Made by a program: the position numbers and the translations under genes. Below are positions 3,549 through 50,975 of a stretch of 50,987 nucleotides of DNA, one piece after another (positions within the stretch are counted from its first letter, which is position 1; each line of letters begins with the position of its first letter). The stretch is from Escherichia phage JLBYU10, in sequence record OK272486.1. One strand, written 5' to 3'. The notes beneath the pieces were generated by a model. The model was given only the letters and a program-made list of their open reading frames with translations, searched no databases and was not told the origin of the DNA.

Positions 3549-3967
3549 TGGCTATAACTGATAAAGGAGATTATCTTGAGTTTTACGAAAGAGATCCAAC
3601 CGACACGAGAAAGGAAGTTAATCACCAGATAGATAGCTTTCAGTGGTTGACTTATGCTCATCCTTATTTGCTAGCGTGGCATACGGTAAACGAGAATGAG
3701 AAGTCGAAAGTAACGGCGATGATTGATCAGCAGTCCGGCTTGGTTAAGGGGGTAAGCGATTTCATCATCCTGATTGGTTCAAACGGAAAATACCCCTTTG
3801 CAGCGATTGAGATCAAACGAGTGAATAAATCAGGCAAGGGGAAAGCATCACCAGTCAGCGATGAACAAAAGGCTTTTTTGCGTCGCGTTCGCAGCTTAGG
3901 AGGATTCGCTGCGGTCGCCTACGGATTTAATCAGTTTAAGTTAGCTATTGAATACATGCTTAAATAG
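3548..3967 (+). CDS. VRR-NUC domain nuclease
   Basis: ATGA start-stop overlap with helicase; SDFIIL...AIEIKR...DEQKAF...GG.AAVAYG pattern typical of VRR-NUC. Confidence 0.6.
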   Translation: MAITDKGDYLEFYERDPTDTRKEVNHQIDSFQWLTYAHPYLLAWHTVNENEKSKVTAMIDQQSGLVKGVSDFIILIGSNGKYPFAAIEIKRVNKSGKGKASPVSDEQKAFLRRVRSLGGFAAVAYGFNQFKLAIEYMLK

Positions 3968-4007
3968 CACTTTTTGTTAAAACTGGCGCGATGGATTGCG
4001 CCATAAT
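3964..4007 (+). promoter_or_regulatory. Motif-type promoter-like unit: ATAGCACTTTTTGTTAAAAC, hairpin in 22-bp spacer, CATAAT
   Basis: Motif overlaps TAG stop of VRR-NUC gene; GGCGC..GCGCC stem in spacer; -10-like hexamer at fixed distance. Confidence 0.5.
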
Positions 4008-4777: not shown

Positions 4778-5035
4778 ATGAAAAAAGAGAGAAGCGTTTA
4801 TTTAAATGAAACTGGCGAGTGGTTGTTATTTCGCGCTATGGTGTGCGATGCACTTGATAAAAACCCTAACGTGAAAAAGATGATTGATTGCGATCCGTGG
4901 GAATTTTCAAGCGCATTAGATATGAGCTTTGATGAGACAAGAAAACTCCCTCTTGAAAAATGGCACGAACAAATCAGAAATGATATGCAAGAGTTTGTAG
5001 ATTCGTGGAATTTTCAGAACGGAATGATCCACTAA
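4778..5035 (+). CDS. hypothetical protein
   Basis: ORF track; ACGGAG RBS; tightly packed. Confidence 0.45.
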   Translation: MKKERSVYLNETGEWLLFRAMVCDALDKNPNVKKMIDCDPWEFSSALDMSFDETRKLPLEKWHEQIRNDMQEFVDSWNFQNGMIH

Positions 5036-5078
5036 TGGCACTTTTTGTTAAAACGCCCGGCATTTTGTCGGGCATAAT
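5036..5078 (+). promoter_or_regulatory. Motif-type promoter-like unit: TGGCACTTTTTGTTAAAAC, hairpin GCCCGGC..CGGGC, CATAAT
   Basis: Motif immediately after TAA stop; 22-bp spacer with stem-loop; -10-like hexamer. Confidence 0.5.
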
Positions 5079-5104
5079 TATTTCATCGAAACGAACGTGA
5101 GGAA

Positions 5105-8253: not shown

Positions 8254-8297
8254 AATATACCCGACACTAGGCCGGGCGTTTTAACAAAAAATGCTAT
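8254..8297 (-). promoter_or_regulatory. Motif-type promoter-like unit (minus strand): ATAGCATTTTTTGTTAAAAC, 22-bp spacer, TATATT
   Basis: Reverse-complement motif overlapping TAG stop of upstream minus-strand ORF. Confidence 0.45.
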
Positions 8298-8488
8298 TCA
8301 ATACGCTTTAACGTAACCAGTAATACACCATCATCATTGCATAAAACATGTTCAGTGGTGCTAAAAGCGCGCATATCTGAATAAAGCAGCGTAAGTAACG
8401 CATGAATAAAATCCTCATGTGAGATTGAATTTACGGCGCAGTGCTTCAAGATCTTGTCTATTAGCTTTTGCCTGGAACAATTCATCAT
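8294..8488 (-). CDS. hypothetical protein (overlaps upstream gene by ~74 bp)
   Basis: ORF track; GGGGAG RBS; stop embedded in motif like other real genes. Confidence 0.3.
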   Translation of the reverse strand: MMNCSRQKLIDKILKHCAVNSISHEDFIHALLTLLYSDMRAFSTTEHVLCNDDGVLLVTLKRIE

Positions 8489-8810
8489 CGCCCATCTCCC
8501 CTATTCTAGCCATATCCCTGATCCAGTCGTTGCGCATACCATCCAGGCTATACAATTCGAATCCGAAAGGCCGCTTTGACGATCCTTTGGACCAGTATTT
8601 TCCGCAGACTCCATCTATATAACCAGCCGTCATCATTCTTGCGCAAAATTCCTTAGATGCAAGGCTGGCGAACATTCGCGGCGTAAGTCCGGCGGCCCGT
8701 GCGAGCCGCTCACATTCTCTATGCTGATAGATAAATTTGGCTATGTGCTGCCTGTTAAACCAGTCGTATGACTCACACCATTTATACAGATCAAGCAAAA
8801 ACATAATCAT
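8415..8810 (-). CDS. hypothetical protein
   Basis: ORF track; ATGA overlap with upstream 526-aa gene. Confidence 0.45.
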   Translation of the reverse strand: MIMFLLDLYKWCESYDWFNRQHIAKFIYQHRECERLARAAGLTPRMFASLASKEFCARMMTAGYIDGVCGKYWSKGSSKRPFGFELYSLDGMRNDWIRDMARIGEMGDDELFQAKANRQDLEALRRKFNLT

Positions 8811-10415: not shown

Positions 10416-10459
10416 ATTTTAACGGCCCAATACTACCCCGTTTTGTCAAAAAGTGCTAT
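10416..10459 (-). promoter_or_regulatory. Motif-type promoter-like unit (minus): ATAGCACTTTTTGACAAAAC, hairpin GGGCCG..CGGCCC, TAAAAT
   Basis: Motif overlaps TAG stop of upstream gene; -10-like hexamer in hairpin loop 22 bp after TTGACA. Confidence 0.5.
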
Positions 10460-10677
10460 TTGATCCGCTCTATTGCAACCAGAAGTCGATCAGGCTGGCG
10501 GTCGCTGTAGCATTCTCCTGTAATCCCATCCTTAAACGTAAAGTAAAGCGCCTTATGATATGAAAAACCAATCAGCCAACCTACCGCCGTTTTTTTGATG
10601 GGCCTAACTATATCGCCAGGCTTGAAAGTCTTTGTGGTAGAATGCGTTACTTTATAACGGTTTTCACTGTTTATCAC
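10456..10677 (-). CDS. hypothetical protein
   Basis: ORF track. Confidence 0.45.
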   Translation of the reverse strand: MINSENRYKVTHSTTKTFKPGDIVRPIKKTAVGWLIGFSYHKALYFTFKDGITGECYSDRQPDRLLVAIERIK

Positions 10678-11060
10678 AGATATTTGCCCTCAAACAGATA
10701 ACAGCCGCCAGCAGAGAATCCGACCTCTTCACGGTACAGGTTCCAGCGGTCGCCGCACTCATCAAAAACATAACCCGCAACGCTTCCAAGCGGTCGCCCT
10801 TTCTCGATCTGGTATCGCTTGCCCTGCTTAAAGTGCTTTTTGCACGGCATGTTATGATCTACAAACGTGCAAAGAACGGTTTTTGTGTTAATGGCGCGGT
10901 AATCATCTCGGTTTGCTGGAAGCCAGCGGCTACCCTTAACAAGCGTCTTAACCTGGAATTCTTCCACCTCGATCACATCATCACTTCCTGCAATCTTCTG
11001 ATAAACCGTTTTAAAACGGCCTTTCATCAATACGTTGGTTTCATTACAGATAACATTCAT
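10674..11060 (-). CDS. hypothetical protein
   Basis: ORF track; AAGGAGATC RBS. Confidence 0.5.
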   Translation of the reverse strand: MNVICNETNVLMKGRFKTVYQKIAGSDDVIEVEEFQVKTLVKGSRWLPANRDDYRAINTKTVLCTFVDHNMPCKKHFKQGKRYQIEKGRPLGSVAGYVFDECGDRWNLYREEVGFSAGGCYLFEGKYL

Positions 11061-11089: not shown

Positions 11090-11133
11090 ATTATGCCAGG
11101 TTTTTACACCTGGCTTTTAACAAAAAGTGCTAT
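11090..11133 (-). promoter_or_regulatory. Motif-type promoter-like unit (minus): ATAGCACTTTTTGTTAAAAG, hairpin CCAGG..CCTGG, CATAAT
   Basis: Motif overlaps TAG stop of methyltransferase-like gene; fixed 22-bp spacer. Confidence 0.5.
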
Positions 11134-13748: not shown

Positions 13749-13779
13749 CTTTAAATCCTCGTTTGTTGTCGATGGGTGT

Positions 13780-14819: not shown

Positions 14820-15029
14820 TCAGATACGCCCATACAGATCACAGACTTCGTTGATAAAACAGCGTTGAGACTCTTTATCGTCACGCTCAAAAATTGCGCG
14901 GCATTCAAACTTAAGATTATGCACGATGACTACAACCATATTTTCAGGCATTGAGCGGTTATAGCGTCGCGCGTCAGTGATTAAAACATCCATACCCATC
15001 TCATGTGCTTTCTTGATCACATCCAACAT
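14820..15029 (-). CDS. hypothetical protein
   Basis: ORF 14820..15053 trimmed to ATG with GGAGAAG RBS. Confidence 0.4.
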   Translation of the reverse strand: MLDVIKKAHEMGMDVLITDARRYNRSMPENMVVVIVHNLKFECRAIFERDDKESQRCFINEVCDLYGRI

Positions 15030-15283
15030 TTTTTCTTCTCCTGCAATAAGCAAACATCATTGATAAAATCAGCACGGCCCTTAATGTTGCTGATGTGGAA
15101 CGTCTTTTCAGCGTACAGGCCATCACCTTCAATCACGATCATTACGCGAGTCGGTTTATTCACGGGCGCACACGAAAAGAGTGGTCGCGCCGGAAGAAAT
15201 TTAGTAGCCACATCCAGGTTAGCCCTGGCGGCCCTGCAAAATGCCTCCGCCAGATCCAAATCATTTTCGGTAATCACCGCCAT
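15017..15283 (-). CDS. hypothetical protein
   Basis: ORF track. Confidence 0.4.
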   Translation of the reverse strand: MAVITENDLDLAEAFCRAARANLDVATKFLPARPLFSCAPVNKPTRVMIVIEGDGLYAEKTFHISNIKGRADFINDVCLLQEKKKCWM

Positions 15284-16964: not shown

Positions 16965-17003
16965 CACTTTTTGTTAAAACTCAAATGTGGGGCCAGGTAT
17001 AAT
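16961..17003 (+). promoter_or_regulatory. Motif-type promoter-like unit: ATAGCACTTTTTGTTAAAAC, hairpin GGGCC..GGCCC, TATAAT
   Basis: Motif overlaps TAG stop of lipoprotein gene; TATAAT in hairpin loop 21 bp after TTGTTA. Confidence 0.5.
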
Positions 17004-18217: not shown

Positions 18218-18375
18218 CTTGGTTGCTTTTAATCTTTGTCACAAGTTACAACTCCGCAGCTATTGAGTCGCAGGAGTTCCACGGCGAATCAAGATGCCAG
18301 GAAGCGCGAAAGCAAGTTGTTCTCCACATGTCAGATAGTGGTAAGGATGTAACAGCGTTATGCGTTCGTAAATAG
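18214..18375 (+). CDS. small hypothetical protein (53 aa), not in ORF track
   Basis: Hand translation MTWLLLIFVTSYNSAAIESQEF...; ATGA overlap upstream; TAG stop embedded in motif. Confidence 0.3.
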   Translation: MTWLLLIFVTSYNSAAIESQEFHGESRCQEARKQVVLHMSDSGKDVTALCVRK

Positions 18376-18415
18376 CACTTTTTGCAAAAACAGATTATCG
18401 GGCTTGCGGTATAGT
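18372..18415 (+). promoter_or_regulatory. Motif-type promoter-like unit: ATAGCACTTTTTGCAAAAAC, hairpin GGGCTT..AAGCCC, TATAGT
   Basis: Motif overlaps TAG stop; -10-like hexamer in hairpin loop, 22-bp spacer. Confidence 0.5.
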
Positions 18416-18446
18416 AAGCCCATAAACAACAAACGAGGATTAAATC

Positions 18447-19696: not shown

Positions 19697-19736
19697 CACG
19701 AATTGCTAAACGCGGGGTTATCGGCCCCGCTATAAT
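19693..19736 (+). promoter_or_regulatory. Motif-type promoter-like unit (degenerate motif ATAGCACGAATTGCTAAAC), hairpin GCGGGG..CCCCGC, TATAAT
   Basis: Motif overlaps TAG stop of kinase gene; 22-bp spacer. Confidence 0.45.
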
Positions 19737-20987: not shown

Positions 20988-21030
20988 TAGCACTTTTTGT
21001 TAAAACTTCCGCAAGGGCATTTGGTAAAGT
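20987..21030 (+). promoter_or_regulatory. Motif-type promoter-like unit: ATAGCACTTTTTGTTAAAAC, hairpin AAGGGCA..TGCCCTT, TAAAGT
   Basis: Motif abuts TAA stop; -10-like hexamer inside hairpin, 22-bp spacer. Confidence 0.45.
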
Positions 21031-21062
21031 GCCCTTATTGAAGCGAAACAGAGGAAAGCGCA

Positions 21063-23641: not shown

Positions 23642-25209
23642 TGATCATATGGGAAGATTTGACGGCGGCGCAAAAGCGAGCCATTAAAGAAATCAGTGAG
23701 CATTCATTCGAAAAGATGATCAGAATCTGGTTCCAATTATTGCAGGGGCAAAAATTCCAGAGCAACTGGCATTTTAGCTTATTGTGCAGTGAGGTAGAGA
23801 AGATCATCAATGGAGAGTCGCAGAATGTGATTTTCAACATTACGCCAGGTAGCGGCAAGACTGAGATTTTCTCGATCCACATGTCACCCTACGCGTCATT
23901 GAAAAGCCGGAAAGTGAGAAACCTTAACCTTTCGTTTAGTGATGGCCTTGTCCAGCAAAACAGCAACCGGATAAAGGAGATTATTGGTTCTCCTGAGTGG
24001 CAAGAGCTATGGCCTGGAAAACTGGCAAAGGCGAGCGCTAAAGATCTGATAGTCACCGAAGGCGGCAAGGTTAAATTGCAGGTTAACTCACGTTCTATTG
24101 GCGGCCAGGTAACAGGTTTGCGTGGCGGCTATATGGATGATGGTTTTACTGGTATGCTGGTTCTTGACGATCCAGACAAGCCGTATGATATGCTTTCTAA
24201 GGTCAAGCGCGAGGCTATTCACATGCGGTTAAAAAACACAGTGCGATCGCGTCGAATGAAAGACACCACGCCGATTGTTATGGTGCAACAGCGACTACAC
24301 GTTAATGATTCCACCTGGTTCATGCTTAATGGCGGAATGGGTGGTATTGAGTTTAAAGTCGTGAGCATTCCGGCGCTGGTTACGAAAGAATACCGCGAAA
24401 CGCTTCCTGATTGGTTGAAGCCTGAATTTGATCGTGATGTGCTGTCAAGTAAGCCAGTGATGATAGATGGCGTTGCTCATTATTCATTTTGGCCTGCGAA
24501 GGAAAGCGCGGAGGAATTGCTTGCATTGCGCAATGCAGATCCTTATACGTTCGCCAGTCAGTACCAACAGCAGCCAATCGCGCTGGGCGGGAACGTGTTT
24601 AAAACAGAGTGGTTCCAGTATTACGGCAGCGGCGAAAAATGCGCACTTCCTAAACCGGATCGCTTTGAATACACATTTATCACTGGAGATACCGCACAGA
24701 AGGCCGGAGAGCTTAACGACTATTCGGTTTTTTGTTATTGGGGGATGTATAAGAATCGCGTTTACTTCATTGATGGCATTCGCGGAAAGTGGGAAGCGCC
24801 GGATCTTGAATTAAATTTTATTGCCTTCGTTAACCAGTGCTGGAAGCGCAATAAGGAGTGTGGCAGCTTGCGACGTATCCACATTGAGGATAAGGCCAGC
24901 GGCACGGGTTTGATTCAGGGGGCCAAAAAGAAGATCCCGATTGATATAAATCCCGTTCAGCGAAGCAATGACAAGGTGACGCGAGCAATGGACGCCGCGC
25001 CAGTAATGAGGGCCGGACGTGTGGCACTGCCAGAAAATCACCCCATGCTGCCTGAGATACTGGCAGAGGTTGCAGCATTCACTTTTGATGATTCTCATCC
25101 CCATGATGATATTGTCGATAATATAGTTGATGCTGTTAACGTCGAAATGAACTTGGCAGATGATCCGGTGGCAAGGATGAAAAAGCTGGCTGGTCTACGC
25201 AATAAATAG
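23641..25209 (+). CDS. terminase large subunit
   Basis: 522 aa; Walker A-like PGSGKTE, Walker B-like LVLDDPD; position before portal. Confidence 0.75.
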   Translation: MIIWEDLTAAQKRAIKEISEHSFEKMIRIWFQLLQGQKFQSNWHFSLLCSEVEKIINGESQNVIFNITPGSGKTEIFSIHMSPYASLKSRKVRNLNLSFSDGLVQQNSNRIKEIIGSPEWQELWPGKLAKASAKDLIVTEGGKVKLQVNSRSIGGQVTGLRGGYMDDGFTGMLVLDDPDKPYDMLSKVKREAIHMRLKNTVRSRRMKDTTPIVMVQQRLHVNDSTWFMLNGGMGGIEFKVVSIPALVTKEYRETLPDWLKPEFDRDVLSSKPVMIDGVAHYSFWPAKESAEELLALRNADPYTFASQYQQQPIALGGNVFKTEWFQYYGSGEKCALPKPDRFEYTFITGDTAQKAGELNDYSVFCYWGMYKNRVYFIDGIRGKWEAPDLELNFIAFVNQCWKRNKECGSLRRIHIEDKASGTGLIQGAKKKIPIDINPVQRSNDKVTRAMDAAPVMRAGRVALPENHPMLPEILAEVAAFTFDDSHPHDDIVDNIVDAVNVEMNLADDPVARMKKLAGLRNK

Positions 25210-25226
25210 CACTAATTGCCAAAAAG
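25206..25226 (+). repeat. degenerate motif copy (ATAGCACTAATTGCCAAAAAG) followed by terminator
   Basis: Overlaps TAG stop of TerL; lacks -10 at canonical spacing. Confidence 0.4.
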
Positions 25227-25236
25227 TTATATAATC

Positions 25237-25263
25237 AAGGCTGGATTTTTCCAGCCTTTTTTA
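25237..25263 (+). terminator. rho-independent terminator
   Basis: GGCTGG..CCAGCC stem followed by T-run. Confidence 0.55.
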
Positions 25264-25279
25264 TTATGGAGATTTGACG

Positions 25280-29805: not shown

Positions 29806-29829
29806 CTAATAGCATAAAAAAACATTGCA

Positions 29830-29848
29830 CGTTTAACAAAAAGTGCTA
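29830..29848 (-). repeat. motif copy in inverted orientation (GTTTAACAAAAAGTGCTAT) upstream of capsid gene
   Basis: Reverse complement of motif inside a rightward operon, next to a terminator. Confidence 0.45.
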
Positions 29849-29853
29849 TCATC

Positions 29854-29882
29854 TAGGCCGTTACATTTAACGGCCTTTTTTA
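29854..29882 (+). terminator. rho-independent terminator
   Basis: AGGCCGTT..AACGGCCT stem followed by T-run. Confidence 0.55.
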
Positions 29883-29895
29883 TGGAGGAAGCAAA

Positions 29896-30867
29896 ATGGC
29901 TAAAAAATATGATGAACTAGATGCTACGATTGTAGCGAATCATTTGCAGATTCAGGGTGTCAAGACCGACGCTTCTGATATGGGTATTTGGACCGCTCAA
30001 GAGCTACACAAGATCCGCTCTACCGCATACGAGAAAGAGTATCCGGCAGGTTCCGCGCTTCGCGTATTCCCCGTAACAAACGAGCTTTCTGATACTGACA
30101 AGACTTTCGAGTATCAGACTTTTGATAAGGTTGGCTACGCGAAAATTATCGCAGACTACACCGATGATCTGCCAACTGTGGACGCGCTGATGACTTCTGA
30201 GTTTGGCAAAGTGTTCCGCCTGGGTAACGCTTTCCTGATCTCAATTGACGAAATCAAAGCAGGTCAGCGAACTGGTAAAAGCCTTTCTACTCGCAAGGCT
30301 AACGCAGCGCAGAATGCACATGATCAGCTTATTAACTTCCTGGTTTTCAAAGGTTCCAAGCCTCATAAGATCGTTTCCGTTTTCGATCATCCAAACCTGA
30401 CTAAAATCACGTCAAAAGGATGGCTGAGTAACGACGGAAACACCAAGTTTCCAGAAGTTGCAAGCGATGAACTGGAGGCCGCAATCGAAACGATCGAGGA
30501 AGTAACAAAAGGCCAGCACCGCGCGACTAACATCCTGATCCCGCCGTCCATGCGCAAAGTCCTGACGGTTCGAATGGAAAATACCACTGAAAGTTATCTG
30601 GAATACTTCCAGAAGCAAAACGGCGGTATCACTATCGACTCTATCGCAGAGCTTGAGGATATTGACGGCAAAGGTACGAAAGGTTGCTTGGTTTACGAAA
30701 AAGATCCAATGAACATGAGCATTGAGATTCCAGAAGCGTTTAACATGCTTCCGGCGCAGCCAAAAGACCTTCACTTAAAGGTTCCTTGCACTTCCAAGTG
30801 TACTGGCCTTACGATTTACCGTCCGTTTACGATGGTGCTTATTACTGGCTTGAAAAAGTCAGCTTAA
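29896..30867 (+). CDS. major capsid protein
   Basis: 323 aa ORF with strong GGAGGAAGC RBS, flanked by terminators, downstream of scaffold. Confidence 0.65.
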   Translation: MAKKYDELDATIVANHLQIQGVKTDASDMGIWTAQELHKIRSTAYEKEYPAGSALRVFPVTNELSDTDKTFEYQTFDKVGYAKIIADYTDDLPTVDALMTSEFGKVFRLGNAFLISIDEIKAGQRTGKSLSTRKANAAQNAHDQLINFLVFKGSKPHKIVSVFDHPNLTKITSKGWLSNDGNTKFPEVASDELEAAIETIEEVTKGQHRATNILIPPSMRKVLTVRMENTTESYLEYFQKQNGGITIDSIAELEDIDGKGTKGCLVYEKDPMNMSIEIPEAFNMLPAQPKDLHLKVPCTSKCTGLTIYRPFTMVLITGLKKSA

Positions 30868-30877
30868 TTAGATAACA

Positions 30878-30907
30878 TGGGGAGCCTTAAGGGTTCCCCT
30901 TTTTTAT
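30878..30907 (+). terminator. rho-independent terminator after capsid gene
   Basis: GGGGAGCC..GGGTTCCCC stem followed by T-run. Confidence 0.6.
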
Positions 30908-30923
30908 TTATGGAGTACACAAA

Positions 30924-31190
30924 ATGAGCAAAACTTTAAAACTTAAAGTAACTGGCGTTTGCATGATTATTATGGACGGTAAGCGTTATCATCCTGGTGA
31001 TGAAATTGAAATTGAATCAGATCGCATTAATGATTCCGCAATTGAATACCTGATCGCTCGCGGCGATGTGGAAGTTAAAGACAATTCCGAAATTAACGAG
31101 CAAATCAAGGAGAAAGCGGAGAAGAAGCGCAAAAAAGATCCTACCGAGGGCAAGAGCCGCAAAGAGCTAGAGGATGGCGGCGAATATTAA
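30924..31190 (+). CDS. hypothetical head protein
   Basis: ORF track. Confidence 0.4.
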
Positions 31191-31195
31191 TAATT

Positions 31196-31214
31196 GGGGC
31201 GCTTATGCGCCCCT
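31196..31214 (+). terminator. hairpin GGGGCGC-TTAT-GCGCCCC (weak terminator/attenuator), part of repeated hairpin-RBS cassette
   Basis: Near-identical cassette at 47395..47435. Confidence 0.35.
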
Positions 31215-31236
31215 TGTCATATCTGGAGAAAACAAA

Positions 31237-31656
31237 ATGGTAGATGAATTTTATACAGACGCTGAAATCGTTCAGCAAATCGTAAAGTTGGCCCCACCAA
31301 TGCAGCAGGTTGATCCCGATTTAATTGTGGCATGGATTGAGCTTGCTAAAGAATTTGTTTGCAAAAAACGGTTTAAAAACTCATACCCTAAAGCGGTTGC
31401 GCTTTACACTCTTCACCTTATGACCTTAGACGGGGCAATGAAACAGGAAGGTGAAAGCGTAGAAAGCTATTCCCGCCGCGTTGCATCGTTCACTCTGACT
31501 GGTGAGTTTAGTCAGACGTTTGATCGAATTTCTTCCGATACAAGCGGAAAGCAGATCCGACAAACGCCGTGGGGCAAAATGTACGAAGTGTTAAACCGTA
31601 AGCACGGTGGCGGCTTTGGCCTTGTGACTGGATTGCGCCGGAGATGCTGCCGATGA
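31237..31656 (+). CDS. head-tail connector/adaptor protein (putative)
   Basis: ORF 31174..31656 trimmed to Met with GGAGAAAACAAA RBS; position. Confidence 0.4.
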
Positions 31657-32027
31657 ACTACAATGAGATTGCAAGAATGGCTACGGATGGGATTAACTTT
31701 TTCAGCGATGCTAACGGTATGTTTAAGTGCATCACGCAGCAGGGAGGGGTTGAGATTATCGGCGGAGAGGAAGTTACCAAGCCGGAGATTTCAGTGATGA
31801 TAAAGGGGCTTGTTAGATCTCCGAGGACTAGAGAGGTTGACGGTGAAACAATCCGAGTAACCGACAAGTTGGGGATATTCACCAATGAAACTGAGATCAA
31901 AAATGGTTATCAGATTGAAATTGATGGCGATCGTTACGTTGTCGTTGAAGCAAGACCAGTCAGGCAGACTAACATCACGGCAGCTTATCGTCCGATATTA
32001 AGGAGGATTGCAGTGCATGGCGGATAA
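31644..32027 (+). CDS. head-tail joining protein (putative)
   Basis: ORF track; position. Confidence 0.4.
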
Positions 32028-32460
32028 TTATAAGATCAGGGAATTTCACGGTGATATAAGCAGGTGGATTGATTCAGTAAGCAGCGGCCTTGTTGATTGC
32101 GTTGAAATGTTCGCGACAAACGTCCACGAGGATCTTGTAAAGCGTTCGCCAGTTGATACGGGCCGATATAAAGCTAACTGGCAGGTAACAGCAAACAAGC
32201 CGCCGCTATATGCTCTCAATCAATACGATCGCGATGGTAGTAAAACCATTGCAGAAGGCAAGCGAGCAATATATGCAATCATGCGGGGCGGTGGCGCGGT
32301 GCGGTCAATCTATTTTTCAAACATGCTTATTTACGCCAATGCGCTTGAATACGGGCATTCAAAACAAGCGCCGTCCGGCGTGCTGGGAATCGTGGCGGTA
32401 AAGCTGCGATCCTATATGACTAAGGCAATAAAGGATTCGAGGGCAAAAAATGCACTATGA
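32008..32460 (+). CDS. neck/tail terminator protein (putative)
   Basis: ORF track; position. Confidence 0.4.
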   Translation: MQCMADNYKIREFHGDISRWIDSVSSGLVDCVEMFATNVHEDLVKRSPVDTGRYKANWQVTANKPPLYALNQYDRDGSKTIAEGKRAIYAIMRGGGAVRSIYFSNMLIYANALEYGHSKQAPSGVLGIVAVKLRSYMTKAIKDSRAKNAL

Positions 32461-32851
32461 TTTAATGTTATCGGCAAGAAAGGCGCTGGCGGAGGAATAT
32501 GAATCACGATTCAAGATCGCCTATGAAAACGTTGATTTTGTTCCGCCTGGTGATGGTTCGATGTGGTTAAAATTTGACTACATGGAAGCCGACACAGATC
32601 GCATATCTCTTGATAGAAAATGCGTTTCTTATATCGGATTGGTTCAGGTTGGAATTGTTATGCCTCCTGGCGGCGGCACTGATAAAGCGCGTTTGCTGGC
32701 TAAAGAGATTGCGAGATTTTTCTATGATGGTAGAATGTTTGAAACTGGCTATATTAGCGAGGGGGCAAACGTCCACGCATTACTAAAAAGTGAAACAGGT
32801 TGGTTCTTACCGATCCGTTTCAGTGTTAGGCTTGACACAAAGGAGGAATAA
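32450..32851 (+). CDS. tail completion protein (putative)
   Basis: ORF track; position. Confidence 0.4.
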   Translation: MHYDLMLSARKALAEEYESRFKIAYENVDFVPPGDGSMWLKFDYMEADTDRISLDRKCVSYIGLVQVGIVMPPGGGTDKARLLAKEIARFFYDGRMFETGYISEGANVHALLKSETGWFLPIRFSVRLDTKEE

Positions 32852-32853
32852 TC

Positions 32854-33516
32854 ATGCACTTGCCTAATGGTTCTCAAATTTTCATCGGCGTTAATATGGG
32901 TGAGCCAATTAGCGCGACTCAAATCAGCAATGCTGATAATCCTGTTTTTACAACCGAAAACACTCAAAGCATCAAAAAAGGCGCTTATGTTCTTATTGAA
33001 ACATCTTCTTGGGGCAAACTTGTTAGTCGAGTGCTTCGAGTTAAGGAAGTATCAGATAATGTAAGTGTTACTCTTGAGGGTGTTAGCACTAAAGATACAA
33101 ACGTATTTCCAGAAGGACAGAACACAGCAACCTTCCGAGAAGTAAAATCATGGGTAGAGATTCCTTGCGTGCAGGATCTTGCGCAGGACGGCGGCGAGCA
33201 ACAGTATTACACTTATCAGTGTTTGGCTGACGACCAGGAGCAGCAGTTACCGACCTATAAGAGCGCCGTTTCTCTTACCTACACTTTCGCGCATGAATAT
33301 GATAACCCGATTTATCCGATCTTGCGCGAGGCTGAGGAATCCGGCGACGTAACAGCTTTGCGTATGTACGTGCCGAAAGCTAAAGAGATGCGTTGCTGGG
33401 CTGGCGTATTGTCTTTTAATGACATTCCGCAAACAACTATGAACGAAATGGAAACTGTTTCCCTTTCTGTATCTCTGAAAGTCCGATTCACGTTCTTACC
33501 TTCCGACGTTAAGTAA
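32854..33516 (+). CDS. major tail protein
   Basis: 220 aa; followed by terminator then chaperone/tape measure genes. Confidence 0.55.
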   Translation: MHLPNGSQIFIGVNMGEPISATQISNADNPVFTTENTQSIKKGAYVLIETSSWGKLVSRVLRVKEVSDNVSVTLEGVSTKDTNVFPEGQNTATFREVKSWVEIPCVQDLAQDGGEQQYYTYQCLADDQEQQLPTYKSAVSLTYTFAHEYDNPIYPILREAEESGDVTALRMYVPKAKEMRCWAGVLSFNDIPQTTMNEMETVSLSVSLKVRFTFLPSDVK

Positions 33517-33543
33517 AACAAGGGGCGTTGCGCCCCTTTTTTC
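33517..33543 (+). terminator. rho-independent terminator after major tail gene
   Basis: GGGGCG-TTG-CGCCCC stem followed by T-run. Confidence 0.6.
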
Positions 33544-33581
33544 ATTCCTGTAAAATCAATCTATCAAATAAATTAATTCCA

Positions 33582-33601
33582 CTTTTAACAAAAAGTGCTA
33601 T
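33582..33601 (-). repeat. motif copy in inverted orientation (CTTTTAACAAAAAGTGCTAT) abutting RBS of chaperone gene
   Basis: Reverse complement of motif followed immediately by AAGGAG and ATG at 33616. Confidence 0.45.
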
Positions 33602-33615
33602 AAGGAGATCTTAAG

Positions 33616-33933
33616 ATGGCAAAGATGAAACTAACGTTAGGCCCACTTCCTGATTTTAAGCTGCCTGTTTCTTTCGTGCTTCCAAATGGTGATGAGCAAG
33701 TTATTGTTTTTACCGTGCGCCACAAGAAGGCAAGCGAAATTCACGAACGATACACGGCAGAAAAGCCGATGAGCGACGTAGAAATGATCACCTTCCTTGC
33801 TTCCGGTTGGGATTTGGAAGATGAATTTAACGAGGAAAACGTTGCTAAATTGCTGGATTATTACCCGTCTGCGTCATTATCGCTGACTGGTCATTATATG
33901 AAAGCACTTGCGGGGCAGCGGGTAAAAAACTAA
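33616..33933 (+). CDS. tail assembly chaperone (lambda G-like)
   Basis: ORF immediately upstream of tape measure gene; ends 3 nt after slippery heptamer. Confidence 0.55.
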   Translation: MAKMKLTLGPLPDFKLPVSFVLPNGDEQVIVFTVRHKKASEIHERYTAEKPMSDVEMITFLASGWDLEDEFNEENVAKLLDYYPSASLSLTGHYMKALAGQRVKN

Positions 33934-39456: not shown

Positions 39457-39500
39457 ATAGCACAATATGTTAAAGCGAAAACGGATTTTCGCTTTACAAT
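39457..39500 (+). promoter_or_regulatory. Motif-type promoter-like unit (ATAGCACAATATGTTAAAG), hairpin GCGAAAA..TTTTCGC, TACAAT
   Basis: Motif adjacent to TAA stop of I-like gene; precedes HNH gene inserted in tail module. Confidence 0.45.
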
Positions 39501-39517: not shown

Positions 39518-39994
39518 ATGTGGCGTGATATTTTTTATTATAATGACGGTAAGTTATTTTGGGCTGTAGACGTAGGAAGAAGGATAAAGAAAGGAAGTGA
39601 GGCAGGAAGCGTAAGCAAAAGCAAGAAGAGTGGAGAAAGGGTTAGAATATCAATTGATGGAGAAAGATACTACAGGAGCAGGATAGTTTGGGAAATTCAT
39701 AATGGAGAAATACCGCATGGAATGCAAGTTGATCACATAGATCACAACACAATGAACGACAATATTTCAAACTTAAGACTTGTTAGAATGAGTGTTAACA
39801 ACAAGAATAAGTCGCTTTACAGGAACAGCAAGACGGGAATTACTGGGGTAAACTTTAGTCGCGGAAAATGGATTGCAAGAGCAAAGATTGATGGTGTTAG
39901 GCATGAATTTTACTTTGATTCATTTCAGGATGCGGCAGAAAAGAGGATAGAGATTGAAGTTTTAAACAAATTCCACATAAACCACGGAAAGTAG
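39518..39994 (+). CDS. HNH homing endonuclease (paralog of 11806..12333)
   Basis: ORF 39467..39994 trimmed to Met with AAGGAGG RBS; VDHIDHNTMNDN HNH signature; shared C-terminal ...HGK. Confidence 0.65.
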   Translation: MWRDIFYYNDGKLFWAVDVGRRIKKGSEAGSVSKSKKSGERVRISIDGERYYRSRIVWEIHNGEIPHGMQVDHIDHNTMNDNISNLRLVRMSVNNKNKSLYRNSKTGITGVNFSRGKWIARAKIDGVRHEFYFDSFQDAAEKRIEIEVLNKFHINHGK

Positions 39995-50882: not shown

Positions 50883-50899
50883 TTGTAAAATCCTCCTAA

Positions 50900-50920
50900 A
50901 TAGCACTTTTTGCTAATGAC
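50900..50920 (+). repeat. motif copy (ATAGCACTTTTTGCTAATGAC) upstream of, and inverted relative to, the tail-fibre gene
   Basis: No -10 at canonical spacing on plus strand; adjacent to RBS of minus-strand gene. Confidence 0.4.
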
Positions 50921-50947
50921 AATGCAGATAATAGCATTTTCAAGTGC

Positions 50948-50975
50948 AAAAAAAAACCCCGCATAAGCGGGGCAA
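50948..50975 (-). terminator. rho-independent terminator for leftward transcription
   Basis: CCCCGCATAAGCGGGG stem with T9 on minus strand; would terminate primase operon if genome is circularly permuted. Confidence 0.5.

Follow-up and report, generated by a model that had tools for sequence, protein, structure and literature searches.

To our knowledge, T1-like phages have neither an RNA polymerase nor a sigma factor of their own. Canonical promoters are few in their genomes, and phage TLS carries 21-nt intergenic direct repeats ('DR' elements, aaATAGCACnnnTTGnTAAAA), which were all described as pointing the way of transcription and preceding start codons by about 76 nt (PMC11447400). Their function was left open in 2024, with a stoperator, an enhancer or an UP element as suggestions, and the supplementary table lists one copy upstream of the capsid gene (DR7, negative strand, 15044..15024) (PMC11447400). 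The stoperators of mycobacteriophage L5 likewise are asymmetric, orientation-biased intergenic sites present in many copies in a phage genome; they are bound by the repressor of a temperate phage and block elongation inside transcription units. In T4 middle promoters an activator box, the MotA box, stands in for the -35 element at a constant spacing from the -10; its centre is at -30, and the phage's own MotA/AsiA recognise it.

In the host, the marbox of E. coli, with the published consensus GCAHWWWWTGYYAAA (PMC6900184), is asymmetric, its GCAC and YAAA elements being separated by about 7 bp. It is bound by MarA, SoxS and Rob, stress activators that act as monomers with two HTH motifs. At class II promoters it is forward, overlaps the -35 element and lies at -36 to -55 (PMC12052159), and the micF marbox is found at about -41 (PMC8811837). 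In the DNA of E. coli K-12, which we checked, micF, the archetype of class II, has the order box ACAGCACTGAATGTCAAAAC, 18 bp, TAGAAT, 7 nt and annotated +1. Marboxes also mediate repression, as at rob, purA and hdeA. At pbpG the marbox lies in the promoter spacer and MarA, SoxS and Rob repress the promoter (PMC12052159), and at flgBP2 a marbox at -16 to -30 in the spacer activates (PMC12781870).

The window analysed here is the whole 50,987-nt sequence of Escherichia phage JLBYU10 (OK272486.1), a Drexlerviridae genome (T1-like, Warwickvirus) with about 19 genuine copies of the 20-bp box ATAGCACTTTTTGTTAAAAC. An 18-mer of the motif was found 17 times at up to 3 mismatches over the whole window, far above chance with 0.16 matches expected. 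The backward copies that a preliminary description had placed before the genes for capsid, tail chaperone and tail fibre are located there. Exact 18/18 matches (TTTAACAAAAAGTGCTAT on the + strand) are found at 29832-29849, beginning 64 nt 5' of the capsid ATG 29896, and at 33584-33601. The TLS repeat consensus has 8 exact matches in the window and 16 within 1 mismatch (0-0.05 expected), and the capsid, chaperone and fibre copies match it with 0-2 mismatches. By its sequence, the JLBYU10 box is the known T1-like 21-nt repeat of phage TLS and belongs to the same family. Unlike the repeats described for TLS, these three copies are opposed to the gene downstream, 14-47 nt from its ATG. In relatives the late sites keep position and orientation. 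The capsid site was seen in T1, TLS and nearly all of 79 IMG/VR loci, the chaperone site in 18 unique relative sequences and the fibre site in 20.

The box is asymmetric, with the family-wide pattern ATAGCAC-N3-TTG-N-TAAAA(C), and it is conserved in two parts, with GCAC and TAAA(A) invariant on either side of a middle that varies among TTT, GAA and TAA classes both within and between genomes. In the window, T1 and a Klebsiella Webervirus, the 5' ATA and the 3' AAAAC are stricter than the host marbox consensus demands. An UP element (alpha-CTD site) was defined as an A/T-rich tract at -40 to -60 without invariant G/C positions; the box, in which GCAC and TTG are invariant and which reaches to -31, does not have this form.

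Fifteen copies are sense copies, oriented with transcription and about 76 nt 5' of a start codon, as the TLS repeats are.

3964-3983, + strand: forward class II-type box, as an example (box, 17-18 bp, -10)
Starts at 5035, 16961, 18372, 19693, 20987 and 39457, + strand: further forward class II-type boxes
Starts at 8278, 10440, 11114, 13804, 14310, 15614 and 44896, - strand: further forward class II-type boxes
1475-1494, + strand: dual-use box, forward class II for the helicase gene (-10 TATTAT 1513-1518, ATG 1551)

All 15 have a -10-like hexamer downstream, at 18 bp in 13 cases and at 17 bp in 2. Of 98 unique contexts from relatives, 57 have TAnnnT at offset 18, and no other offset has it more than 11 times. 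The sense boxes lie at about -50 to -31 of their own predicted promoters, with the centre at about -40.5, and a -35 element is absent. Thus all 15 have the class II features (forward, over the -35, centre about -41, about 18 bp to the -10), which are also present at the chaperone copy when read on the - strand, and are absent from the capsid and fibre copies. The consensus GCAHWWWWTGYYAAA has 15 exact matches in the window and 0.1 in shuffles; the capsid and chaperone copies fit it exactly and the fibre copy with 1 mismatch. At all non-degenerate consensus positions the phage and micF boxes agree (15/20 overall), and the mar marbox is identical to one phage box at 16 of 20 positions. The same box-promoter architecture was found in T1 and the Klebsiella Webervirus.

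In sequence and geometry the box is a marbox, a putative site for MarA/SoxS/Rob. That it should fit a host consensus of independent derivation and also have the micF spacing is unlikely by chance. We infer that early, replication and lysis genes are served by the 15 forward boxes as activator-dependent promoters of class II type. These share consensus, asymmetry, orientation, -35 overlap, the centre at about -41 and the 18 bp with the class II MarA/SoxS/Rob (RamA) promoters known in Enterobacteriaceae, such as micF; unlike the host set, about 15 predicted promoters are gathered in one 51-kb virulent phage genome, driving early genes. Unlike L5, this phage is virulent and shows no sign of such a repressor, and most of its copies are fixed 18 bp from a -10. 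Compared with T4, where the -35 is likewise missing, the box is centred at -41 and matches a host activator site, and there is no recognisable phage activator: no AraC/HTH_18 domain was found in 42 non-structural ORFs, and tblastn with MarA/SoxS queries (approximate query sequences) gave no match. In the literature we found no published binding of MarA/SoxS/Rob to the T1-like repeat. The marbox identity, the backward late-gene copies and their embedding in late promoters are not described in the TLS paper.

Early and late boxes differ in placement, the early ones being forward and 18 bp from the -10, the late ones on top of the promoter core or of the stretch transcribed first. The forward class II copy at 39457 sits within the late tail cluster, so the rule 'forward = early, overlapping = late' is not absolute. 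Many sense boxes come directly after a stop codon. Of the suggestion that the motif is an orientation-independent protein-binding site, the substance, a protein site, is supported, but not the independence: orientation and the exact distance to the -10 are held rigidly constant. For the late copies, a class I Mar/Sox/Rob promoter (backward box, centre -56 to -85) was considered and rejected, because their centres are just 24-56 nt from the ATG, which leaves no space for a promoter plus leader. As placed for the late genes, the backward copies have neither class I nor class II geometry.

At the capsid gene the copy lies inside a predicted promoter.

29816-29852, + strand: sigma-70 promoter predicted for the capsid gene (A-tract 29816-29822, -35 TTGCAC 29825-29830, 16-bp spacer, TGc 29844-29846, -10 TATCAT 29847-29852)
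29830-29849, - strand: backward box (ATAGCACTTTTTGTTAAACG on the - strand), kept in position and orientation in 45 unique relatives
29855-29881, + strand: terminator-like hairpin (29855-29876) and T-run between capsid promoter and SD
29884-29888, + strand: capsid SD GGAGG, ATG at 29896

The box occupies the promoter spacer at about -29 to -10, and TAT is common to box and extended -10. Both the -35 TTGnnn and the TGn are present in 45/45 unique relatives, and the -10 is TATCAT, TATTCT, TATATT or TATTAT in 42 of them, the other 3 being out of register. At the equivalent T1 promoter the scanner called TTGACG-16-TATTAT with TG, and GenBank also annotates a promoter there. In the window the strict sigma-70 scanner called 0/3 late promoters, their -35 elements matching at only 3/6 positions, which is why the capsid promoter is missed. 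In the Webervirus the capsid -35, TGn and -10 are retained although the box is degenerate. The box is therefore dispensable for promoter activity, which favours a modulatory or repressive role. On the opposite strand TATTAG lies at 18 bp from the capsid copy, and its T-7 is not kept in relatives.

The chaperone copy lies between two predicted promoters facing each other.

33520-33545, both strands: bidirectional terminator that follows the gene for the major tail protein (hairpin 33520-33538), called on both strands
33528-33556, + strand: predicted rightward tail promoter (-35 TTGCGC 33528-33533, 17-bp spacer, -10 TAAAAT 33551-33556)
33558-33563, - strand: leftward -10 TAGATT, exactly 18 bp from the box
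33582-33601, - strand: backward box in the predicted chaperone 5' UTR, about +20 to +39 of the rightward promoter, followed by AAGGAG and ATG 33616

The -35 of the tail promoter lies within the loop and stem of the terminator. Among 18 unique relatives its -10 reads TAnAAT in 18/18 and a -35 TTGCnn stands at 17 bp in 17/18; the rightward tail promoter in the window was not called by the strict scanner. In the leftward TAnnnT, all 18 of 18 unique relatives have T at position 1, A at position 2 and T at position 6, and the middle bases vary. Read on the - strand, the chaperone box is thus predicted to serve, in forward orientation, a leftward class II promoter that faces the late promoter. The predicted leftward RNA is about 40 nt long and runs into the bidirectional terminator; an Rfam search with it gave no match. 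Among relatives the gap between box and SD varies from 0 to 12 nt.

At the fibre gene, which most likely starts at ATG 50882 rather than at GTG 50906 of the longest ORF, the box lies over the predicted start site.

50900-50919, + strand: box ATAGCACTTTTTGCTAATGA, backward to the leftward fibre gene, about +2 to +22 of the predicted fibre promoter
50928-50936, - strand: extended -10 TGC TATTAT predicted for the fibre gene, preceding the box by 8 nt
50947-50973, - strand: terminator behind the primase gene, 5' of the predicted fibre promoter (hairpin 50973-50956)

This copy has 2 mismatches to the 18-mer on the - strand (50900-50917) and adjoins the SD (CCTCC 50892-50896, GGAGG on the - strand). 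The TGnTAnAAT-type element is present in 20/20 unique relatives. In T1 the scanner called TTGCAA-17-TAAAAT with TG, and the box begins 3 nt after the -10, at -3 to +17. On the opposite strand no -10 was found at 18 bp from the fibre copy. The terminators reported beside all three late copies are present as the terminator-like hairpins given above. The absence of a -10 at canonical spacing holds for capsid and fibre and fails at the chaperone copy; the tight apposition to the RBS is seen at chaperone and fibre in the window, but with the drifting gap it is not a conserved trait of the chaperone site.

The copy after TerL had been reported as inverted; its orientation is forward.

25206-25225, + strand: forward box at the TerL end, overlapping the TerL stop TAG (25207-25209), kept in 19 unique relatives

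This box ends 4 nt 5' of TATAAT (25230-25235), that is at about -36 to -17 of a predicted portal promoter; hairpin, T-run and SD come after this promoter. With respect to the leftward regulator gene 987-1463, the dual-use box at 1475-1494 is backward and adjoins the SD, a fourth such copy that was missed earlier. A palindromic TATAATA -10 is common to both directions, being kept in most relatives and replaced by ATACTA in a few. The locus has the face-to-face design of the chaperone site, here with a productive class II arm.

We propose, with a probability of roughly 0.55, that the inverted copies are putative DNA operators in late promoters and that one box-binding factor activates early and restrains late promoters. 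The factor is probably host Rob/MarA/SoxS. It would be there as soon as infection begins, most likely as Rob with MarA/SoxS contributing, and would fire the early promoters without -35 through the forward boxes. At late genes the bound protein would overlap the core of an ordinary sigma-70 promoter, lying in the spacer at capsid, over -35 and spacer at portal and over the start site at fibre. For chaperone and tape-measure the box would lie just 3' of the start, with the competing leftward class II promoter leading into the bidirectional terminator. The factor would occlude the late promoters or divert RNA polymerase from them, and its later loss, titration or inactivation would free them. An operator-type (pbpG-like) geometry is found at the predicted capsid, fibre and portal promoters. 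As in pbpG-type repression, the capsid box sits in the spacer of a predicted sigma-70 promoter; unlike pbpG, the fibre and chaperone boxes are 3' of the start and the chaperone site adds the competing promoter. As a spacer marbox is able to activate at flgBP2, the sign of the late regulation is uncertain. Classical T1-resistant mutants map to fhuA/tonB, and we know of no rob, marA or soxS mutants that are T1-resistant. Cells that are not stressed contain little MarA and SoxS, and most of their Rob is sequestered. This makes an absolute dependence on the host factors doubtful.

The box being stricter than the host consensus could point to a dedicated phage-encoded binder. A non-AraC phage protein, with the marbox likeness convergent or incidental and the promoter logic unchanged, is rather unlikely. 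Candidates are the Cro/YdaS-like regulator 987-1463, which has a weak HTH match (PF15943/PF14549) and a box in its own 5' UTR, and the winged-helix-like proteins 8418-8810 and 10677-11060, the former modelled as helical with a beta-hairpin and giving weak MarR/GntR-like matches. That rob/mar/sox mutants are not known to be resistant would also fit such a protein. However, the fold search gave no significant match (best E = 0.46), the asymmetric box without dyad is atypical of Cro-like or winged-helix dimers, its host-consensus match and micF spacing would be improbable by chance, and about 15 promoters without -35 would have no activator at time zero. That the box factor instead activates late promoters, for example by DNA bending or distortion beside the -10 as MarA does at flgBP2, is distinctly unlikely. 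The core of the capsid box, at about -27 to -13, is placed similarly to the active flgBP2 marbox, but the late promoters already have near-consensus extended -10 elements and UP-like A-tracts, activation is implausible from the fibre and chaperone boxes 3' of the start, and the Webervirus keeps the promoter and not the box.

The chaperone site, with its class II arrangement kept in 18/18 relatives and a terminator called on the same strand, would suit inverted copies that serve mainly as leftward promoters, regulating late genes by antisense or short RNAs or by convergent transcription. We consider this very unlikely, as the -10 at 18 bp is not conserved at capsid and missing at fibre, and the chaperone RNA is short and matches no Rfam family. 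The pairing of early motif RNA with late 5' UTRs, put forward in the preliminary description, by which translation or stability would be controlled, is extremely improbable. The fibre and chaperone boxes are predicted to lie in 5' UTRs beside the SD, and read-through could carry sense boxes into RNA, many of them being directly after stop codons. However, the sense boxes lie upstream of their own start sites and would enter RNA only by read-through, and the capsid box in the -29 to -10 spacer would be absent from the mRNA of the capsid promoter. The box-SD distance drifts among relatives, the tie to the -10 is rigid at 18 bp, and the search gave no conserved RNA structure or RNA family. The bipartite, marbox-like conservation is the signature of recognition by a two-helix-turn-helix protein, not of base pairing.

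Reading the box as a marbox would explain the early promoters without -35, the rigid 18-bp spacing and the odd backward late copies. More tentatively, at somewhat less than even odds, Drexlerviridae, a family of virulent coliphages, may run their transcription programme on host Mar/Sox/Rob: about 15 marbox promoters would start early genes at once without a phage factor, and marboxes in the late promoters for capsid, portal, tail and fibre would delay these genes until titration or inactivation of the factor. If this is true, the modules of promoter, terminator and operator would be compact parts for engineering, and the finding would be relevant to phage-antibiotic combinations and to Drexlerviridae in therapy. 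Some Drexlerviridae use TolC, a member of the Mar/Sox/Rob regulon, as receptor. Phage development would be coupled to the antibiotic, oxidative and bile-stress state of the host, and both susceptibility and timing would be tied to the Mar/Sox/Rob antibiotic-stress regulon.

In a megablast search the window is ~96-98% identical to Escherichia phages JLBYU07, tunus and JK16, and JLBYU07 is classified in the genus Warwickvirus (Drexlerviridae, Tempevirinae). Genes are ordered as in T1: leftward and rightward early arms, TerS/TerL, portal, head and tail genes and J, then the recombination genes, a fibre gene read leftward, and the primase gene. Since the latter crosses the window ends, the window represents a whole, circularly permuted genome.

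The 18-mer TTTAACAAAAAGTGCTAT has 17 matches in the window at up to 3 mismatches, compared with 0.16 expected. The inverted copies of the preliminary description, located 5' of the capsid, tail chaperone and fibre genes, are indeed present, non-random and conserved in relatives, and terminator-like hairpins flank all three. The positions of these 18-mers and of a -10 element discussed below are:

29832-29849, + strand: capsid copy, exact; capsid ATG at 29896
33584-33601, + strand: chaperone copy, exact; AAGGAG directly 3', ATG at 33616
50900-50917, - strand: fibre copy, 2 mismatches; adjoins GGAGG of the leftward fibre gene
33558-33563, - strand: leftward -10 TAGATT, 18 bp from the chaperone box

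The degenerate copy at 25206, which had also been described as inverted, is actually in sense orientation, and a fourth backward copy abutting an RBS (1475-1494, before the regulator gene 987-1463) had been missed. The motif is an already known repeat of the T1 family, hitherto unexplained. The 2024 re-annotation of phage TLS lists a 21-nt repeat, aaATAGCACnnnTTGnTAAAA, in 18 intergenic copies, oriented with transcription and located ~76 nt upstream of start codons, and similar repeats in T1, Rtp and Rogue1. Its supplementary table includes the capsid-upstream copy (DR7, negative strand), and the inversion is not discussed in the text.

Every window copy was aligned in the orientation of the box. 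All 15 gene-sense copies carry a -10-like hexamer (TATTAT, CATAAT, TATATT, TAAAAT, TACATT, TATAAT, TATAGT, TAAAGT or TACAAT) 18 bp after the 20-bp box ATAGCACTTTTTGTTAAAAC, or in two copies 17 bp after it, followed by a conserved leader (CATCGAAACGAAC..) and the SD. Among 98 unique box contexts from relatives TAnnnT is found at offset 18 in 57, and in at most 11 at any other offset; the same layout occurs in T1 and in a Klebsiella Webervirus. The box therefore spans ~-50 to -31 with its centre near -40.5, and these promoters are without a -35 element because the AAAAC end of the box sits at that position.

Several further features of the early promoters were observed. The 18-bp stretch between box and -10 is a G+C-rich hairpin at 5055-5072, 8260-8277, 11096-11113, 19713-19730 and 39477-39494, and further hairpins lie at 10423-10439, 16981-17003, 18392-18416 and 21007-21031. 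Some span the -10, and the T-rich -10 and leader come next. The arrangement has the look of a terminator that serves the upstream gene and is embedded in the next promoter. The hairpin is kept while the stem sequences vary between promoters and phages (T1, Webervirus). The conserved leader (A)CAYCGAMAACGAAC lies between -10 and SD in most box-dependent early promoters, ~7-30 nt after the -10 (e.g., 5079-5100 and, on the - strand, 13755-13779), and is also present in T1 and Webervirus; in the Webervirus-like clade it precedes the capsid gene as well. Many boxes overlap or directly follow the upstream stop codon (e.g., 3961-3966, 18369-18374) and are thus packed without spare intergenic DNA. One forward class II-type copy (39457-39476; ATAGCACAATATGTTAAAGC, 18 bp, TACAAT) lies among the late tail genes, 5' of an extra gene (ATG ~39518 to 39994) and of the J-like gene, and is an exception to a simple early/late split of promoter types. 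In T1 the small terminase gene has a forward box (8362-8381) directly against its SD, without a -10 at 18 bp; no equivalent before TerS was found in the window.

The box lacks dyad symmetry; GCAC and TAAA(A), ~7 bp from each other, are invariant, and the A/T-rich stretch between them varies. This pattern is reminiscent of the marbox. The marbox consensus quoted by the Grainger laboratory, GCAHWWWWTGYYAAA (PMC6900184), has 15 exact matches in the window and 0.1 in dinucleotide shuffles. Class II promoters of MarA, SoxS and Rob are defined by a forward marbox overlapping the -35, with its centre between -36 and -55 (PMC12052159), and the site of the archetype micF lies at ~-41, with CACT-7N-AAA reading the same way as transcription (PMC8811837). 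In the E. coli K-12 sequence, micF consists of ACAGCACTGAATGTCAAAAC, 18 bp, TAGAAT, 7 nt and the annotated +1. The box-18-hexamer register is identical in micF and the phage, and the two boxes do not differ at any non-degenerate position. One phage box has 16 of 20 positions in common with the mar marbox, ATGCCACGTTTTGCTAAATC. No paper linking marboxes or Mar/Sox/Rob with T1-like phages was found in a search of the accessible literature. On inspection by eye, resemblances to sigma-54, IHF, Fis, CRP, DnaA and MotA-box sites were dismissed because of their spacing or key bases.

For the capsid copy, a scan of IMG/VR with the capsid protein gave 79 loci of 54-99% identity. The backward box is located 62-82 nt before the capsid ATG in essentially all of them, down to ~56% identity, including TLS and T1. 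On the capsid strand a conserved block consists of an A-tract, a -35, a 16-bp spacer, TGn and a -10. Both the -35 (TTGnnn; TTGCAC in 20, TTGACG in 13, TTGAAC in 5 and TTGACC in 5) and TGn are found in 45 of 45 unique sequences, and the -10 is TATCAT, TATTCT, TATATT or TATTAT in 42, with 3 out of register. As the TAT of the -10 complements the ATA at the box start, the box fills -29 to -10. At the T1 equivalent (15062-15089), where GenBank annotates a promoter, a strict sigma-70 scanner calls TTGACG-16-TATTAT with TG. The same scanner called no promoter at the three late sites of the window, the T1 equivalents being called for capsid and fibre; its silence at the window capsid site is explained by the -35 (TTGCAC), which matches at only 3 of 6 positions. 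In Webervirus-like loci (L050-L081, Klebsiella Weberviruses) the capsid -35, TGn and -10 are kept ~45-65 nt before the ATG around a degenerate box (ATATCACGAATCGTTAAGCC); capsid promoter function therefore does not require the box. In the same genus (Webervirus, L111) early promoters retain perfect boxes. In the region 29853-29881 the predicted capsid start, 6-8 nt after TATCAT, lies at the base of the terminator hairpin 29855-29876 or within its 5' arm. Read-through transcripts would terminate there; transcripts from the capsid promoter would either carry a stem-loop at their 5' end or have an incomplete stem and escape termination.

The fibre site was followed in loci found with the primase protein, together with T1. 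All 20 unique sequences show the order primase terminator, extended -10 (TGnTAnAAT; TGCTATTAT in the window, 50928-50936, - strand), 3-8 nt, backward box, SD and an ATG that opens MAIYR or MALYR. The T1 promoter is called by the scanner as TTGCAA-17-TAAAAT with TG. The box covers ~+2 to +22 in the window and ~-3 to +17 in T1. The longest fibre ORF begins within the box, at GTG 50906; the start that is conserved, ATG 50882, has GGAGG 9 nt upstream and gives MAIYR, and most likely the gene starts there.

The chaperone site is kept in 18 unique sequences, which represent several genera and include T1; its box is absent from TLS-like phages and Webervirus. Here two predicted promoters overlap face to face. 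The + strand carries TTGCGC, which is part of the tail-tube terminator (loop and stem), then 17 bp and TAnAAT (18/18); this places the box at ~+20 to +39. On the - strand TAnnnT follows the forward-read box at exactly 18 bp in 18 of 18 sequences, the middle bases being free. The claim that no inverted copy has a -10 at the canonical spacing thus fails for the chaperone copy, where the -10 is on the other strand, but holds for the fibre copy, which has none at 18 bp on its other strand. The predicted leftward start lies near 33551, and the transcript then meets the hairpin 33520-33538, called by the scanner as a terminator on the - strand too. The distance from box to SD is 0-12 nt among relatives. 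A conserved RNA hairpin formed from the box in the chaperone UTR was dismissed, as its CAC/GTG extension is not conserved in relatives.

The copy at 1475-1494 is designed like the chaperone site, here with a class II arm that is productive: it serves the helicase promoter as its class II box and is at the same time a backward element in the leader of the divergent regulator/primase transcript, and the -10 elements of helicase and regulator share a conserved palindromic TATAATA. At 25206-25225 the forward box is followed after only 4-6 bp by a conserved TATAAT or TACAAT, and then by a hairpin, a T-run, the SD and the portal ATG, so that it occupies ~-36 to -17 of a predicted portal promoter. 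The order -10, hairpin, T-run and SD (25230-25270) is the same as in the capsid promoter. The TAG in the ATAGCAC of this box (25207-25209) is the TerL stop codon.

The preliminary description had offered RNA-RNA pairing between early and late transcripts or an orientation-independent protein-binding site. Pairing does not fit the capsid copy, which lies within the promoter spacer, nor the sense copies, each of which precedes its own start, and the box is conserved in a protein-like pattern. Rfam gave no family at gathering threshold on the whole window, and no conserved RNA fold was found. A protein site, as judged from sequence, is probably correct in substance, but orientation and register clearly matter. 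The sequence is of marbox grade, its register at early genes is that of class II, and at late promoters its overlap with the core or with the initial transcribed region is conserved. On this basis one factor would activate early promoters and interfere with late ones. Operators classically include sites that cover +1. At the chaperone locus the factor would recruit RNA polymerase to the leftward promoter and in this way occlude the rightward one. For the capsid geometry a precedent is found in pbpG, where a marbox in the spacer causes repression by MarA, SoxS and Rob (PMC12052159). The sign of the effect at late promoters is uncertain, because a marbox at -16 to -30 activates the sigma-28 promoter flgBP2 (PMC12781870). 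As the late core promoters are strong and the box is lost in Webervirus, we argue that the box would restrain rather than activate them. Class I activation of late genes by the backward boxes was ruled out on distance.

Most simply, the candidate binding factor would be host Rob, with MarA and SoxS able to substitute. Rob is constitutive and abundant. It is, though, largely inactive in unstressed cells, and classical T1-resistant mutants are fhuA or tonB, which counts against an obligatory dependence on a host factor. A phage-encoded protein that binds the box is a live rival, but the phage has no recognisable AraC-type protein: tblastn of MarA and SoxS against the window gave no match below E = 1, and Pfam searches of 10, then 42 non-structural ORFs gave no HTH_18/AraC domain, the sole HTH match being a weak Cro/YdaS-like one in 987-1463. 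Two ~130-aa proteins, 8418-8810 and 10677-11060 (both - strand), are restricted to Drexlerviridae; they have no Pfam match, no match in a PDB sequence search and no detectable paralogy to each other. The AlphaFold model of 8418-8810 (pLDDT 87) is helical with a beta-hairpin, and Foldseek returned only insignificant winged-helix (MarR/GntR-like) matches. This product is a possible DNA-binding protein, by its model winged-helix-like at best.

New here are the marbox identity of the repeat, together with its class II geometry, and the reading of the "inverted" copies as operator-like boxes built into late promoters, which can be tested with standard reagents.
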